The position numbers and the translations under genes are program-made. The notes beneath the pieces were generated by a model. It searched no databases. It saw only the letters and a list, made by a program, of their open reading frames with translations, and was not told where the DNA came from. This document shows positions 4,865 through 60,590 of a DNA stretch of 64,000 nucleotides, piece by piece (the first letter of the stretch is position 1; each line of letters begins with the position of its first letter). The stretch comes from Candidatus Bathyarchaeota archaeon (GTDB taxonomy: Archaea; Thermoproteota; Bathyarchaeia; Bathyarchaeales; Bathycorpusculaceae), in assembly GCA_963815095.1 (NCBI GenBank), contig CAWFFH010000003.1:32001-96000 (forward strand), in the 5' to 3' direction.

Positions 4865-5183
4865 GGCGGTGGATCTTAAGCGGTGGGTTAGGGGTCCATT
4901 GTACCGTAAATCCTCTACATGACGGGCTGACATCTGCGGATGAGGCGTCAAAGGCCGCTTGAACTTCCATTTCCGAACCAGTGACTATCCGTCCTTTGGG
5001 GCTGGCGGTCGATGGGTGGCTTCCGTAGGGAAGTTACTTCATCGTTCAGCAGGCGAACCTGGCTAGGCTCGGGAGAGAGCAACCTAAGTTTGGACGTTAT
5101 GCGCTCAAGGGGGTGCGGGTAAGAGTGTAGGGTTTGGAGGCTTCAGACGGATTCTGGGCGTCAAACCGCAGTGGTCCACCGCT
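4865..5183 (+). ncRNA. ffs: Archaeal signal recognition particle RNA (7S RNA)
   Basis: GC-rich, about 320 nt. Terminal helix GCGGTGGATC (4866-4875) pairs with GGTCCACCGC (5173-5182). Helix 6 CGATG-GGTGGCTTCC-GTAG-GGAAGTTACT-TCATCG has a GNAR loop. Helix 8 CTAGGCTC-GGGA-GAGAGCAACC carries the SRP54-binding AGG/AGC loop and a GNRA tetraloop. Confidence 0.93.
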
Positions 5184-30195: not shown

Positions 30196-30273
30196 GGGTC
30201 CGTAGCTCAGTCAGGCTAGAGCATCGGACTCTTAATCCGAGGGTCGCGGGTTCAATTCCCGTCGGACCCGCCA
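30196..30273 (+). tRNA. tRNA-Lys(CTT), intronless, CCA encoded
   Basis: Acceptor stem GGGTCCG/CGGACCC; anticodon arm TCGGA-CTCTTAA-TCCGA; T arm GCGGG-TTCAATT-CCCGT. Confidence 0.96.
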
Positions 30274-52190: not shown

Positions 52191-52706
52191 TTAAGCATCA
52201 ATTGCAGTGATTTGCTTCGCTAATTCACGGATTTGTTGCCTGAATTTTTCGCGCATTTTCGTGAAGCGCATAGCGGCCGAAGGATGAACGATCTGGATAT
52301 ATTCTATTCCATCTATTCGCGGGGTTTCTTTTGCAGATGCCCCCAAAAGCACGATTATTTCTGGCTTAATAAATCTAATTTGAGTAATTAAGTAAGGCAA
52401 GCATGCTTTAACTTCGTCGTCGAATGGTTTGCGGTTTTTGGGAGAAACATGCTTAACAATATTTGTTATGAAAACGTCTTCACGTTTTATACCAAATTCG
52501 CTTAAAGTTTTGGTTAAGTATTTTCCTGCGCGACCGACAAATGGTCTGCCCAATTCGTCCTCGTCTGCTCCCGGATTCTGCCCGACAAACATTACGGTAG
52601 CGCTCAGTGGTCCTTCGCCTGGAACTGCATGTTTTGCGTCTTGCCAGAGCCTACATTTTCTGCATCCATAAATTTGCGCGTTCAATTCGTCCATTGACAT
52701 GTGCAT
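52191..52706 (-). CDS. Uracil-DNA glycosylase, family 4-like
   Basis: CRKCRL, VPGEG, GQNPG..ED..GRPFVGRAG, HPSAA. Confidence 0.88.
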   Translation of the reverse strand: MHMSMDELNAQIYGCRKCRLWQDAKHAVPGEGPLSATVMFVGQNPGADEDELGRPFVGRAGKYLTKTLSEFGIKREDVFITNIVKHVSPKNRKPFDDEVKACLPYLITQIRFIKPEIIVLLGASAKETPRIDGIEYIQIVHPSAAMRFTKMREKFRQQIRELAKQITAIDA

Positions 52707-54612: not shown

Positions 54613-55212
54613 TTATTCCGCATTTGCATAGAGTTCAAGCAAATCATGCTTAAAGCGTTCAGGTTCATCTTTGTAGGCTGAGTGGTTTGAACCGTCGTAG
54701 ATTATGAGTTTTGCATTGGGCAGTTTATCGGCTAGGGTTCGCATGTCTTCGCTTGTGACTATGTTATCTTGGGAGCCCCAAATTATTGTTGTTGAAAACT
54801 TGAATTGGCTGTATTTCTGCACGAGGTCTGGTTCAAGGGCTCTTGCAGGCGAAACTAACAGTAAACCCTTAACTGGAAAACATGCCGCATACCGCAACAC
54901 CATGTTGCCGCCTATACTGGCACCAACGAGTAAAGGAACGGTTGCACCAAAAACAGTTTTGACTGAATCATTTACATATGTAATGTTTTTTTCTGGATCG
55001 CGGGTTTTGGGTTGGCACTGACTCTTCAAGCCGTAAGGCATGTCTAAAGCTAGAAAAGGAATACGTTTTTTCATTAACAAATCTGTTACACCTATTCTCT
55101 GCCAAATGTCGGCGGTGTATGATAATCCGTGAAGAAAAACTATTGGAGTACCAGAAGAAGTGTAATACAAAGCCGGGCACTCGTAGCCCGCCACATTTAA
55201 TGTTTTCTCCAA
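54613..55212 (-). CDS. Alpha/beta hydrolase
   Basis: FLHG, GASIGG nucleophile elbow, WGSQD, H; probable TTG start. Confidence 0.88.
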
Positions 55213-55316
55213 GCCAATCGCTCCATGATTTGCTATGCACACAGCCTCTTATAACATTTAATTCGGTTTGCGAAAAACATAATAGCCCTAAAAAGCCACT
55301 ATGTTACGGTGAATTT

Positions 55317-55793
55317 TTGACAGTTAAAGTCGGCGATAAAGCCCCAGATTTCACACTTCCATCCCAAATGGGCGACAACATCACTCTCTCAGAGTTTTTT
55401 GGCAAAAAGAATGTAGTATTATACTTTTATCCTAAAGATGAATCCCCAGGCTGCACAAAAGAAGCATGCACCTTCAGGGACAGCTATGAAGAACTAACAA
55501 ATTTGGGTGCTGAAGTACTTGGGATAAGTGGGCAGAGTGTAGAATCCCACAAATCCTTCGCCACACATTATGGGTTGCAGTTTATTCTTCTAAGCGACCA
55601 AGGCCACAAAGTCAGAGAACTTTATGATGTGCCTTCAACTATGGGATTAATTCCTGGACGTGTCACATTCATCATCGACAAGAAAGGGGTAGTTCGCCAT
55701 ATTTTCAATTCCCAAACCCAAGCCCAGCGACACGTAGAAGAAGCAAAAAATACTTTAAAACAACTAGAACAAGAAGAGAAAGCCACGGCTTAG
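55317..55793 (+). CDS. bcp: Peroxiredoxin BCP/PrxQ
   Basis: [26 protein letters not shown]; TTG after GGTGA. Confidence 0.93.
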
Positions 55794-55807
55794 GAGGAGA
55801 AGCAACC

Positions 55808-57043
55808 TTGCTCAATATCTACAATACACTAACACGGAAAACTGAGCCGTTCAAACCTACAGATGACAAAGAGGTTAAGATGTACACTTGCGGCCCATCA
55901 ACATACCAACCAGCCCACATCGGCAACTACCGAACATTCCTCTTTGAAGACATTCTTCAACGCTACCTCGAATATTCAGGATTCAAAGTAACCCGGCTAA
56001 TGACGCTAACCGACGTAGAAGATAAAGCCATTTCACAAGCTAAAAAAGAAAAACTAACCGTTGAAGAGTTAACGCACAAGAACGAGACAGTTTTTTTTGG
56101 GGATTTTAAGCTTTTGAAAATCAAAAATCCCGAATACGCTGTTAGGGCTTCATCAGCGGTGGATCAAGCGGTAAACTTGATTTCGAAACTTGTGGAAAAA
56201 GGCACCGCATACTTTTACGCTTACAATTGTGCAAGAAACGTTTATTTTGACCCTTTAAAATTCGGGGGATTCGGTAAACTTGCCCGTTTAGACATGAGCA
56301 AGTGGCCCAAGAAGAAACGTCGCTTCCACAAAGACACATATCCGGGCACTCCGTGGAACCGCGGTGATTTCGTCCTTTGGCATGGTTGCAACCAAGACGA
56401 CGTATGCTTCGAAACGTCGATTGGAAAGGGGCGACCTGCGTGGAACATTCAGGATGCGGCTATAGTTACTAAGCATCTGGGCTTCTCTGTTGATGTTGGT
56501 TGCGGCGGAATCGACAATTTAGTTAGGCACCACGATTATACGCTAGCGGTTGCGGAGGCCGTTTCGGGTAAACAGTTCTCGCGCTATTGGTTGCATGGCG
56601 GGCATCTGTTTGTGGATGGCAAAAAAATGTCCAAAAGCAAGGGCAATGTGTATTACCCAACTGATTTGTTAGCAAAAGGCTTTAGTGGTGAGCAGTTGAG
56701 GTTCTTTCTTATTTATGGACCGTATAGGAAAAAGCTGAATTTCACATTCGAAAGGTTGGCTCAGAGAATCCAAAAGCTTGATTCATTGAAGGACATGGTT
56801 GCAGAGTTGCAAAATACGAAATCAAATGGACGAATTGAATTGCAAAAAAACTTAACCAGCATCATCGTTTCTGATTTTGAAAATCACATGAATAATGATT
56901 TAGACGTAATATCTGCCTTCGACAGCCTATACAGAACAATCAGTCAACTTTACGAAATGCGGCAATCTTTGAGTTCAATTGACATAAAAAATGTGTTGAA
57001 TGGCTTACGCAAAGTTGACAGCGTGCTACAATGTATTTTTTAA
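55808..57043 (+). CDS. Cysteinyl-tRNA synthetase-like protein, truncated, with an altered zinc site
   Basis: YTCGPS, HIGN, DFVLW and KMSKS present; WNIQD and HHDYT replace WHIEC and HHENE; no anticodon-binding tail. Confidence 0.88.
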   Translation: MLNIYNTLTRKTEPFKPTDDKEVKMYTCGPSTYQPAHIGNYRTFLFEDILQRYLEYSGFKVTRLMTLTDVEDKAISQAKKEKLTVEELTHKNETVFFGDFKLLKIKNPEYAVRASSAVDQAVNLISKLVEKGTAYFYAYNCARNVYFDPLKFGGFGKLARLDMSKWPKKKRRFHKDTYPGTPWNRGDFVLWHGCNQDDVCFETSIGKGRPAWNIQDAAIVTKHLGFSVDVGCGGIDNLVRHHDYTLAVAEAVSGKQFSRYWLHGGHLFVDGKKMSKSKGNVYYPTDLLAKGFSGEQLRFFLIYGPYRKKLNFTFERLAQRIQKLDSLKDMVAELQNTKSNGRIELQKNLTSIIVSDFENHMNNDLDVISAFDSLYRTISQLYEMRQSLSSIDIKNVLNGLRKVDSVLQCIF

Positions 57044-57279
57044 ACGAGTTCGCCTATAAGCTTAACTCTAGCGAACGTTTCATCGCGATGCGGCGCCATT
57101 TCAAGTTCTTCAGTTAAATCTTTGCCTGCATCATGCATACCCATGTGGTCGCCTTCCATCCAGAAACTGCTATCTGTAACTTCGTAGACTTTGCCTTTAT
57201 GTGCAATGTAAGCTGGTTTACCGTTTTTTCCATTGTTTTCCTGTAGTTCTTGACGTGTAACTTTTTTTGGTTCTGACAA
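57040..57279 (-). CDS. Cytochrome b5-like heme/steroid-binding domain protein
   Basis: NGKNGKPAYIA.KG.VYEVT.S..W..G.H...H.AG.DLT..L..APH. Confidence 0.9.
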   Translation of the reverse strand: MSEPKKVTRQELQENNGKNGKPAYIAHKGKVYEVTDSSFWMEGDHMGMHDAGKDLTEELEMAPHRDETFARVKLIGELV

Positions 57280-57347
57280 AAAATTCACCTTTTCTTTAAG
57301 GTCTAAAAGTTTAAGGATAGTTTTAAAGGTTTAGGGATTAAAATAAA

Positions 57348-58418: not shown

Positions 58419-58614
58419 CGTGAATCCTCAGTTAGAGGGTATTACGCCTTGGAAATTTAAGGCTTGCCAAAACAATTTTCGATTTATGATAACTCGGCAA
58501 TAGCAACTTATCTATCTATAATTTGTGCATAGAACCGATATTGGATCTAAAAATAGTCAGGTTAATGCGAATACTTTTTGTTTGCCCCTTGTGCATCTAA
58601 TAGTCAGTGACTAT

Positions 58615-59490
58615 TTGGTGCCATTGATTTCAAGCTTTGATCCTTGGCGTTCAGGCCTCTGCACATGCCCTCCTAAGCTGACGTTTAACCCTTACACGGG
58701 ATGCAACCACCAATGCATCTACTGTTACGCATCCAGTTACATACCCAACTTCAAAAACTGCCACCCAAAAAAAGACGCACTCGCTACGCTCAAACGCGAA
58801 GCAGCCAAACTTAAAGGAGAAATCATCTCAATCGCCAACTCATCTGACCCTTACCCTCGTATCGAAGCTACTGAAGGGTTGACCCGACGATGTCTCGAAA
58901 TCTTGGCGGAAAACAACTGCAAAATCCAAATCATCACCAAAAGCAACCTCGTAACCCGAGACGACGACCTCCTCAACAAGATTCCCTCAATGGTCGCATT
59001 AACAATAACCACTGATGACGATAATTTGGCAAGAGTTATTGAGCCATATGCGCCATCGCCTTCCCAGCGTATAAGAGCTGCACAGGACTTAATCAGGGCA
59101 GGCATCCCAGTTTCGGTTCGAATAGACCCGATAATTCCCTCAGTTAATGACCAGCCGCAAAAACTCATCGTAACCCTCGCCAACATCGGCATCAGACACT
59201 TGACCTGCTCAACTTACAAGGCTAAAGCCGACAATTGGATGCGACTCTCGCAAGCAATGCCCAAGGTAGCTGAACAGCTTAAACCGCTCTACTTTGTTCA
59301 GGGAGAAAAAATCAGCGGCAGCGCACTTCTGCCAAAAGAGCTAAGATTCAAAATCCTCAAACATATCCGAGATTTAGCTGAAGCCAACGGAATGAAGTTT
59401 GGGATATGCCGCGAAGGCTTAGCCCAACTAAACACTGCAACATGCGACGGCTCATGGCTCATACCCAAACCTAAAGGAGGTTTAGGCTGA
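58615..59490 (+). CDS. Radical SAM protein, SplB-like DNA repair subfamily
   Basis: FNPYTGCNHQCIYCYA, SDPY, ITKS, IEP.APSP..R, RIDPIIP; start approximate. Confidence 0.88.
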   Translation: MVPLISSFDPWRSGLCTCPPKLTFNPYTGCNHQCIYCYASSYIPNFKNCHPKKDALATLKREAAKLKGEIISIANSSDPYPRIEATEGLTRRCLEILAENNCKIQIITKSNLVTRDDDLLNKIPSMVALTITTDDDNLARVIEPYAPSPSQRIRAAQDLIRAGIPVSVRIDPIIPSVNDQPQKLIVTLANIGIRHLTCSTYKAKADNWMRLSQAMPKVAEQLKPLYFVQGEKISGSALLPKELRFKILKHIRDLAEANGMKFGICREGLAQLNTATCDGSWLIPKPKGGLG

Positions 59491-60590
59491 TGCAGAACCG
59501 AGTAATAATGCTAGCAGACTTTGACTACTTCTTTGCCCAATGCGAGGAACTCCGCAACCCATCCATAAAAGAAAAACCAGTCGTTGTCGGCGTTTATTCG
59601 GGACGCACTGAGGAGAGCGGAGCCGTCAGCACAAGCAACTACATCGCTCGCAAATACGGCGTCAAATCAGGTATGCCGCTTTTTCTGGCGAAGCGCAAAC
59701 TGGAAGGCACAGAAGTCGTTTTCTTTAAAGTAGACCATGAATACTACGATCAAATCAGTGACCGCATTATGCAGATTTTCCGCGGCTACGCCAGTAACCT
59801 TGAACAAGTCAGCGTTGATGAGGCTTATTTGGATGTTACCGAGCAAGTTGAAGGAAGCTTTGAAAAGGCAAAGGATTATGCCCAGAAAATCAAAGGTGAT
59901 GTCAAAAACCAAGTCGGAATCTCCTTCACAATAGGCATTGGACCAAACAAGCTCATTGCAAAAATTGCGTGTGACAGCCAAAAACCCGATGGCTTAACTA
60001 CCGTCAAACCCGAAGAAGCGCGAGCTTTCCTTGAACCGTTGGATGTTGACCGCCTTTTAGGGGTGGGCAAGAAAACCTCCACCAGGATGGCGGAGTTGGG
60101 CATAAAAACTATAGGAGACTTAGCCAAATATGACTGCCAAAGACTCATAGAAATTTTCGGCAAAGTCTTAGGCATCTATTTCCACAACTCCGCGAACGCA
60201 GTTGACAATGAACCCGTCCAAGAACAGGGCGAAGCAGAATCAATCAGCCGCATCGGCACCCTAAAACAAGACACACATGACCTAGAATTCATCCTGCAAA
60301 AAACAGACGAACTAACCGAATACGTTGCAAAAGAGGCCGCTGAGAAAAGCTTGAGCTTCAAACTGGTATCGATATACGTTGTTAATGTGGATCTAAGCTG
60401 TAAAAGCCGCTCAATAACGCTTGAGCAACCCGCCAAAGACAAAGAAACAATTAAACGTAATGTCCGCATCCTCTTCGAGAAGTTCTTGGCTGACTCACCG
60501 CTTGAAGTGCGCAGAGTCGGCGTTAGAGTCGCTAGTTTTAGCAAAGAAGAACTAAGACAAAAACAGCTAACAAGTTTTTTCCAAACCTAA
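59490..60590 (+). CDS. dinB: DNA polymerase IV (Y family, Dpo4/DinB)
   Basis: ADFDYFFAQ.EE, Y.ARKYGVKSGM, SVDEAYLD, AKIA.D..KPDG, GVG.K, RRVGVR. Confidence 0.95.
   Translation: MQNRVIMLADFDYFFAQCEELRNPSIKEKPVVVGVYSGRTEESGAVSTSNYIARKYGVKSGMPLFLAKRKLEGTEVVFFKVDHEYYDQISDRIMQIFRGYASNLEQVSVDEAYLDVTEQVEGSFEKAKDYAQKIKGDVKNQVGISFTIGIGPNKLIAKIACDSQKPDGLTTVKPEEARAFLEPLDVDRLLGVGKKTSTRMAELGIKTIGDLAKYDCQRLIEIFGKVLGIYFHNSANAVDNEPVQEQGEAESISRIGTLKQDTHDLEFILQKTDELTEYVAKEAAEKSLSFKLVSIYVVNVDLSCKSRSITLEQPAKDKETIKRNVRILFEKFLADSPLEVRRVGVRVASFSKEELRQKQLTSFFQT

Follow-up and report, generated by a model that had tools for sequence, protein, structure and literature searches.

What does a second, shortened cysteinyl-tRNA synthetase (CysRS) do in an archaeon that possesses a complete one? 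The question is raised by a gene in a 64,000-nucleotide stretch of DNA from a Candidatus Bathyarchaeota archaeon (GCA_963815095.1, contig CAWFFH010000003.1, positions 32,001 to 96,000), referred to here as the window. An earlier note on this DNA had described the gene product as a CysRS paralog of MshC-like architecture with a remodelled amino-acid pocket. We find that the paralog belongs to a distinct, coherent and unnamed CysRS-derived subfamily in which the ATP machinery is kept and the amino-acid pocket rebuilt, and that it probably does a new ligation job. The gene and the motifs on which this view is based are the following, in window coordinates:

55808..57043, + strand: short CysRS-like paralog, 411 aa, TTG start
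55880-55900, + strand: MYTCGPS, verified by translation
55916-55927, + strand: HIGN (the class I HIGH motif), kept, residues 37-40, verified by translation
56303..56383, + strand: cationic, family-specific CP1 motif WPKKKRRFHKDTYPGTPWNRGDFVLWH, aligning to E. coli Q164-A167
56441-56455, + strand: WNIQD in place of canonical WHIEC (H206N, E208Q, C209D)
56492-56509, + strand: DVGCGG, the His of DIH gone at a position that is variable in the family
56525-56539, + strand: RHHDY in place of canonical PHHEN (P233R, E236D, N237Y), followed by a T at a position that is variable in the family
56624-56638, + strand: KMSKS loop, kept, residues 273-277

Translation of the coordinates bears out the open reading frame (ORF) of 411 codons with intact HIGN and KMSKS motifs that had been noticed before. 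The TTG start is credible since the N-terminus, MLNIYNTLTRK, pairs with the first residues of E. coli CysRS in the HMMER alignment, from which all E. coli residue numbers used here were counted, and orthologs begin at the same residue. The protein scores 251.8 bits with the Pfam family tRNA-synt_1e (CysRS catalytic domain) and 306.9 bits with the NCBIfam cysS model TIGR00435, below the cutoff of 340, while the MshC model TIGR03447 yields 185.6 bits, far below its cutoff of 485.1. Because the cysS match covers model positions 1-399 of 466, and because the canonical CysRS of the same genome runs about 58 residues further than the end of the paralog (...DSVLQCIF), the anticodon-binding domain at the C-terminus is missing. 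This agrees with the previous description of a protein ending after the helical domain.

Compared with E. coli CysRS the paralog retains C28, T68, W205, H234 and H235 and carries the changes H206N, E208Q, C209D, H224G, P233R, E236D, N237Y and E238T. In CysRS, C28, C209, H234 and E238 are reportedly the zinc ligands, and W205 and T68 are said to contact the cysteine. Two of these four ligand positions, C28 and H234, are kept; C209 is replaced by D and E238 by T, the latter being variable in the family. Retention of the first Cys and the His, together with the shifts from WHIEC to WNIQD and from HHENE to HHDYT, had been read directly from the sequence, and alignment and translation give the same result. 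One observation did not hold: the Cys in DVGCGG, taken in the earlier note as a new residue, is not new, since the canonical CysRS of the same genome reads DIHCGG and many full-length CysRS have a Cys at this place. The true change at this motif is the loss of the His rather than the gain of a Cys.

The replaced residues recur throughout a family. Six cluster-representative proteins of 401-424 aa share W-N-x-Q-D and R-H-H-D-Y, and an alignment of 88 rows allowed us to compare 45 family rows with 34 full-length canonical CysRS:

Position 213 (H206): N in 44/45 of the family; H in 34/34 canonical CysRS
Position 215 (E208): Q in 45/45 of the family; E in 34/34 canonical CysRS
Position 240 (P233): R in 45/45 of the family; P in 34/34 canonical CysRS
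Position 243 (E236): D in 45/45 of the family; E in 27/34 canonical CysRS
Position 244 (N237): Y in 45/45 of the family; N in 24/34 canonical CysRS

In a smaller family alignment of eight rows D216, at the C209 position, is invariant. Different members have T, N, I or V at the E238 position, and that of His224 is likewise variable. Retained throughout are C28, G29, T68, K73, W205, H234, H235, HIGN and KMSKS, and the CP domain contains a block particular to the family, W166-P167-x3-R171-R-F173-H174 ... T177 ... G180 (an inserted residue) ... W183. A search starting from the distant member P0124 returned 118 further proteins of 383-439 aa with 45-63% identity, among which RHHDY is present in 118/118 and WN[IVL]QD in 115/118. 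The paralog of the window shows the whole signature of the subfamily, having the three motifs, a length within the range of ~400-425 aa and a place in its single clade. Given the near or complete invariance in the 45 family rows and the 118 further matches, the pattern of substitutions is not due to chance. A median dN/dS of 0.086 among intact orthologs (27 of 105 pairs usable, dS < 3) points to purifying selection on the intact paralog, so that the remodelled pocket proposed earlier is real, conserved and under selective constraint. The residues that are replaced here and common to CysRS and MshC most likely serve amino-acid or adenylate chemistry, because cysteine and ATP are all that these two enzymes have in common as substrates, and the altered pocket fits a changed or differently bound amino acid. 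A literature search on CysRS paralogs, in which subscription journals lay mostly outside the coverage, gave no paper on a WNxQD/RHHDY subfamily. The paralogs described in the papers retrieved are MshC, CysRS* and Zur-linked copies (PMC2922099, PMC9437257, PMC11580382, PMC5424206, PMC2770081, PMC5389517).

The paralog is an accessory copy and not the route by which the cell obtains Cys-tRNA, since the host genome (2.69 Mb in 9 contigs, 98.45% complete) contains a canonical cysS scoring 496.6 bits. This gene (C3:212440-213825) encodes a 474 aa protein with GWHIEC, FPHHENE and the C-terminal domain. The alternative SepRS/SepCysS route could be rejected for this host: the best SepRS match has 48.2 bits where the cutoff is 380.65, and the best SepCysS match 37.9 bits where it is 365.25. 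A single tRNA-Cys with a GCA anticodon was found when the whole genome was searched with aragorn, with and without introns; the same searches gave no suppressor, Sec, Pyl or extra tRNA-Cys, and we therefore reject the idea of an extra tRNA partner for the paralog. The RNA genes detected in the window with Rfam and aragorn are those for the signal recognition particle (SRP) RNA and a tRNA-Lys, neither of them near the paralog. The accessory status is not restricted to this host: the paralog is carried by 19 of 41 related genomes, 18 of which also have a second match of canonical type, the exception being a genome that is 56% complete. Likewise, a Spirochaetes metagenome-assembled genome (MAG) with a family member also contains a canonical CysRS (480 bits). 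A recent duplication of the host CysRS was considered and rejected, as the tree places the family outside the clade of the host enzyme and the identity is only 38-40%.

The AlphaFold2 model built from the 88-row alignment has a predicted local distance difference test (pLDDT) value of 93.3 and a predicted template-modelling score (pTM) of 0.93, with lower confidence at residues ~161-200, the region of the CP1 motif, and at 341-350. Foldseek ranks CysRS first (8qhp at a TM-score of 0.88, 1u0b at 0.87) and MshC slightly below (0.83-0.84), and we are confident that the predicted fold is that of CysRS. The likeness to the canonical enzyme (TIGR00435; PDB 1li5/1u0b, 8qhp) comprises TM-scores of 0.86-0.88 at 29-31% identity to solved CysRS, the HIGH and KMSKS motifs, C28-G29, T68, W205, H234/H235 and the succession of Rossmann, CP, SC-fold and helical-bundle domains. 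It differs by its score below the cysS cutoff, the missing anticodon-binding domain, the replaced pocket and CP1 motif, the loss of E238 and the accessory status. A further difference concerns charge. The family has a median isoelectric point (pI) of 9.27 and the window protein one of 9.22 with a net charge of +13, compared with 6.49 for the CysRS of the same genome, a median of 6.2 for 41 full-length CysRS and a median of 5.08 for MshC. The largest shift by domain is found in the CP domain (+7 versus -2 in canonical CysRS), followed by the second Rossmann half (-1 versus -5) and the SC fold (+8 versus +4). According to Mukai et al. 2016 (PMC5389517), E. coli Q164-A167 is the CP1 motif that reads the acceptor stem's first base pair (1:72). 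It is this very site that W-P-x3-R-R-F-H occupies in the family.

In the window the paralog forms part of a small cassette, delimited as follows:

54613..55242, - strand: alpha/beta-hydrolase gene, left cassette border
55317..55793, + strand: BCP-type peroxiredoxin (AhpC/TSA), upstream cassette partner, with invariant C46 and C51 (C-x4-C)
55794..55807, + strand: 14-nt spacer GAGGAGAAGCAACC, with a Shine-Dalgarno-like GAGGAG
57040..57288, - strand: Cyt-b5-like gene, convergent, with a 4-nt overlap with the paralog stop, right cassette border

The BCP gene had been listed as an ORF from 55119 to 55793 (224 aa) which overlaps the hydrolase gene on the opposite strand. Its true start is probably the TTG at 55317, in view of orthologs of 153-158 aa and the extent of the Pfam match. 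With BCP ending at 55793 and the paralog starting at 55808, the 14-nt distance reported between the two genes is correct and their co-transcription seems probable. The arrangement is also conserved: of 15 loci from the genus, the window counted, 14 have BCP immediately upstream and in the same orientation, as do 4 of the 5 loci from three sister genera, which amounts to 18/20 within this archaeal family. Among 80 metagenome loci, 13 were set aside as too short upstream, and 61 of the 67 scored have BCP directly upstream of paralogs that are 60-80% identical to that of the window. Among 61 genomes of the genus, the two genes are found together in 41; a further 6 have the paralog without BCP, 1 has BCP without the paralog and 13 lack both, counts that come from related genomes and not from independent samples.

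Elsewhere the contexts are different. The gene for the Y-family polymerase dinB lies directly downstream, with a gap of 11-15 nt or an overlap, in 6/6 loci of two other archaeal families (5/5 from another genus and 1 from another order); of the other archaeal loci, one is followed by carA/carB, while both BCP and dinB are missing from two. A motif search identified the paralog in 18 of the 20 spirochaete loci fetched, and L227 and L228 were left out. A divergent patatin-like gene is present in 10 of these 18, an ABC ATPase directly downstream in 8, an ABC-2 permease in 7, a START-domain gene in 8 and a YdjM-like gene in 5. Across the context types examined we found no recurring glycosyltransferase, deacetylase, acetyltransferase, carrier-protein or aminoacyl-transferase partner.

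The family is widespread. A sample of the class Bathyarchaeia has the paralog in 50 of its 401 genomes and in 9 of its 131 genera, and the genus of the window has it in 47 of 61 genomes; a Spirochaetota sample gave 22 of 401 genomes. The proteins from the P0124 search bear source names such as Salinispira pacifica, Spirochaetes MAGs, "ANME-2 cluster archaeon" and "Methanosarcinales archaeon", and all are annotated at the source as "class I tRNA ligase family protein". A scan of genome contigs with generic motifs was dominated by canonical CysRS and gave the spirochaete member and the MshC references. As to habitat, each of the 14 sequencing runs listed contains fewer than half the words sampled (best 0.39), so nothing is named here beyond the run labels, "soil/wetland metagenome". 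As weak evidence against fused forms of the family, none of 120 listed proteins of 721-2055 aa exceeds 39% identity.

Genomes of the genus that are devoid of the paralog preserve traces of it, and the gene was therefore present in the ancestor of the genus and disappeared on repeated occasions. In G023 the hydrolase and cyt-b5 genes are separated by a gap of 148 nt in which the final 12 paralog codons survive (75% identity), and the 214-nt gap of G004 retains the last 19 codons (58% identity, E = 1.4e-4). G016 has kept BCP and lost the paralog, leaving 208 nt, and larger deletions at the locus are seen in G024, G005 and G128. Decay can also be observed in progress. At G437:C18:276039-277765 a fragmented BCP gene and a paralog with 7 stops decay side by side, and at G429:C27:238096-239630 an intact BCP gene lies next to a paralog with 5 stops.

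How, then, might such a protein act? The reading we favour, and hold tentatively, is that of a neofunctionalised adenylating ligase whose acceptor would be an RNA or tRNA 3′ end, without any reading of the anticodon. The retained catalytic core would bind ATP and form an aminoacyl-adenylate, as HIGN, KMSKS and the residues holding the amino-acid backbone are kept; the paralog very probably still adenylates an amino acid. Replacement of the Cys2-His-Glu zinc site by Cys/Asp/His plus Arg, Asn, Gln and Tyr would re-specify the side-chain and metal pocket, with the consequence that the enzyme may load cysteine in a novel binding mode, or else an amino acid that is related to cysteine or anionic. 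The acceptor-binding CP domain has turned strongly cationic, which would suit a polyanionic acceptor, for which an RNA or tRNA 3′ end is the preferred candidate with the anticodon left unused. Ordinary Cys-tRNA(Cys) would no longer be made by the paralog and, in this lineage, the enzyme would be part of a dispensable stress cassette co-transcribed with the BCP peroxiredoxin. The dinB genes next to the paralog in the two other archaeal families are likewise neighbours of a stress type.

YadB/Glu-Q-RS, a truncated GluRS which glutamylates queuosine in tRNA-Asp, serves as a model for the proposed RNA acceptor. Like the paralog it is a class I synthetase paralog without the anticodon-binding domain, and it still acts on RNA, although it belongs to another synthetase family. 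It appears in Table 1 of PMC9437257. A further precedent is a CysRS that charges tRNA in vivo despite having no such domain (PMC5389517).

A number of observations weigh against an RNA ligase of this kind. No dedicated or odd tRNA was found in the host genome and no RNA gene lies by the locus. The architecture equals that of MshC, which is tRNA-independent, and His224 is lost in both proteins; under an approximately unbiased (AU) test, moreover, a tree that unites the family with MshC is not rejected (delta log-likelihood 28.5, p = 0.294). Membranes or small phosphorylated molecules, instead of RNA, could be what the basic surface binds. Neighbours vary by lineage, and no partner is universal. 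The function is dispensable: the paralog is missing in about a quarter of the genomes of the genus, those examined showing the deletion scars described above, and its copies in G021, G204, G399, G419, G429 and G437 contain in-frame stops. Finally, transcription of the paralog was not seen. Soil metatranscriptome contigs from four runs of two studies cover only positions 57003-57242, that is, the cyt-b5-like gene, which they match exactly, and the last 41 nt of the paralog, and RNA libraries can contain DNA.

Several of these points are shared by the alternative that fares best, a tRNA-independent small-molecule ligase in line with the earlier note which, as MshC does, would adenylate cysteine or another amino acid and transfer it to the amine or hydroxyl of a metabolite. 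The acceptor could be the precursor of a low-molecular-weight thiol, or else a head group that is phosphorylated or belongs to a lipid, and the product a redox cofactor for the adjacent peroxiredoxin. We regard this as possible, if rather unlikely. The altered pocket and tRNA-reading CP1 motif, the common end point, the shared loss of His224, the lack of a partner tRNA in the host genome or near the locus and the AU test are all in its favour, as are the cassette with a thiol peroxidase and the presence of a PIG-L deacetylase and of glycosyltransferase family 4 (GT4) and family 2 (GT2) genes in the host genome. However, the resemblance to MshC described in the earlier note is one of architecture only. 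MshC and all the short forms stop at one common point behind the helical bundle, the terminal sequence of MshC and the paralog being D-x-[VL]-L-x-[VI]-x-[FL], and MshC (PDB 3c8z, 8hfm) is likewise a CysRS-derived protein of ~410 aa, accessory beside a real CysRS and devoid of His224 and Glu238. Identity with MshC is contradicted by the score with its model, by the pocket and by the pI. Five actinobacterial MshC references, all verified at 626-679 bits with TIGR03447, retain GWH[IV]EC and FPHHE and lose E238 (G or S), His224 and Lys73; in the pocket motifs and at Lys73 the family shows the opposite pattern. With a pI of ~5 MshC is acidic, whereas the family is basic. The five other family members among 18 short proteins scanned with the MshC model reach 164-189 bits, the maximum of all 18 being 234.7.

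In an IQ-TREE quick search (75 rows, LG+G4) the family forms one clade, with a Shimodaira-Hasegawa-like approximate likelihood ratio test (SH-aLRT) support of 88, or 99 if the long-branched P0195 is included. It is nested in a 26-row clade of short CysRS-like proteins (98) that also holds members with a canonical pocket, among them P0130 from a Micrarchaeia MAG, named cysteine--tRNA ligase. MshC groups with actinobacterial CysRS in the free tree, but the AU test does not reject joining it with the family, and an origin of the family independent of MshC is what the best tree suggests rather than a proven fact. Among other short CysRS-like lineages, P0160 (Micrarchaeota) combines WNxQC with NHHENT, an intermediate between canonical CysRS and the family. 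Other odd pockets among short CysRS-like proteins are those of P0183 and P0241, where Trp205 is replaced, and of P0195, where Cys28 is a Ser.

The genomic evidence does not favour a thiol pathway either. Among genomes of the genus, an MshB-like PIG-L match is found in 34 of the 47 that carry the paralog and in 6 of the 14 that do not, and PIG-L does not track the paralog; 13 paralog-bearing genomes have no such match, including some that are 92-98% complete. An MshB-like PIG-L as obligate partner was accordingly rejected. No biosynthetic neighbours for a low-molecular-weight thiol were seen in the context types examined, none of which has a glycosyltransferase, deacetylase or acetyltransferase next to the paralog. 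BCP enzymes with a C-x4-C pair such as the present one are usually reduced by thioredoxin, which also speaks against this alternative. A glycan-type locus was noted at G000:C8:46597-58015 (L134), where a PIG-L deacetylase gene accompanies a GFO/IDH/MocA oxidoreductase, two GT4, two GT2 and a 2-phosphosulfolactate-phosphatase-like gene.

A second alternative, which we consider unlikely, would be a specialised CysRS isozyme that charges tRNA-Cys with cysteine by means of a thiolate-poor or zinc-free metal site and thereby survives peroxide or zinc shortage, its expression being coupled to that of stress genes. The stress-type neighbours (BCP, dinB and YdjM/ABC exporters) are compatible with such a role, as are the basic CP and SC-fold surfaces. 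Asp at position 209 is also found in the full-length CysRS P0181, P0211, P0213 and P0250, and the nearest short relatives have a canonical pocket, P0130 even being named as a CysRS. Mukai et al. 2016 (PMC5389517) further describe CysRS* of Desulfobacterales, which lacks the anticodon-binding domain and works on tRNA in vivo; loss of this domain alone therefore does not imply tRNA independence. CysRS* and the paralog have in common the missing domain and an altered CP1 motif. They differ in that CysRS*, as described there, is genetically linked to a selC* tRNA and selB*, whereas BCP and cyt-b5 genes, and no such tRNA, adjoin the paralog, and in the CP1 sequence itself (PTVS in CysRS*, PKKK within W-P-x3-R-R-F-H in the paralog).

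The extra CysRS copies of the Zur regulon of proteobacteria offer another precedent for a copy tied to a stress regulon, but they retain the zinc-binding residues according to PMC2770081, while the family replaces two of the four zinc-ligand positions and second-shell residues in addition. An isozyme is difficult to reconcile with the replacement of H206, E208 and P233, which are invariant in 34/34 canonical CysRS and kept in MshC, or with that of the CP1 motif reading the acceptor stem. The score of 306.9 bits against a cysS cutoff of 340 is a further argument against it. Least convincing is a non-catalytic or regulatory scaffold that would bind only ATP, amino acid or RNA, for example as a sensor: a dispensable, often lost and at times pseudogenised gene with a disrupted canonical pocket could be so explained, but the invariance of HIGN, KMSKS, the backbone-binding residues and the new pocket residues themselves, which are not decaying, together with a dN/dS of ~0.09, makes it very improbable.

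Returning to the adenylating ligase, one may also view it more broadly, in a version that we find doubtful, as a third functional CysRS-derived type next to MshC and CysRS*. Such a ligase would be blind to the anticodon and have a cationic acceptor site, and as a mobile, dispensable gene product it would assist the defences against peroxide and damage in spirochaetes and in archaea that live in soil or oxidise methane. Its cargo might be a sulfur amino acid related to oxidation, or else cysteine bound by a Cys/Asp/His site, to be attached to the end of an RNA, the head group of a membrane lipid or a new thiol cofactor. An even bolder variant would have it carry out an ATP-dependent repair of the over-oxidised cysteine of the adjacent peroxiredoxin.

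Synthetase paralogs have repeatedly proved to harbour new biochemistry, as exemplified by MshC, Glu-Q-RS and the amino-acid:carrier-protein ligases. Here a subfamily whose active site has been cleanly re-specified abounds in metagenomes from soil and wetland and spans two domains of life, yet its public annotation is limited to "class I tRNA ligase family protein" or the miscall cysteinyl-tRNA synthetase. Definition of the substrate could reveal a redox metabolite or a new RNA or lipid aminoacylation, and it would put an end to the miscounting of the paralog as CysRS in annotation and in genetic-code surveys of uncultured archaea. Salinispira pacifica is a cultured carrier, which opens the question to bench work.

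Some minor observations were made along the way. CysRS catalytic domains fused to a family-2 glycosyltransferase domain (PF01406 + PF00535, ~722-800 aa) occur in P0437, P0443-P0448, P0457, P0463 and others, labelled Chloroflexi, Dehalococcoidia or Anaerolineae. They are unrelated to the WNxQD/RHHDY signature and could act as thiol-cofactor synthases. Fusions of a PALP domain (cysteine-synthase-like, PF00291) with CysRS, of ~760-800 aa, are represented by P0392-P0408, P0134, P0427 and P0431 from DPANN archaea (Woesearchaeota, Nanoarchaeota) and Desulfobacterota-type bacteria. As to the remainder of the window, the archaeal SRP RNA gene lies at 4867-5181 (157.4 bits) and the tRNA-Lys(CTT) gene at 30196-30273. 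A radical-SAM gene with weak likeness to spore-photoproduct lyase and DUF1848 abuts dinB at 58525-60590, base 59490 being common to both, and an ORF for a family-4-like uracil-DNA glycosylase is found at 52191-52706, 3 kb upstream of the cassette. With this pair and the glycosylase ORF nearby, DNA-repair genes cluster around the cassette locus.

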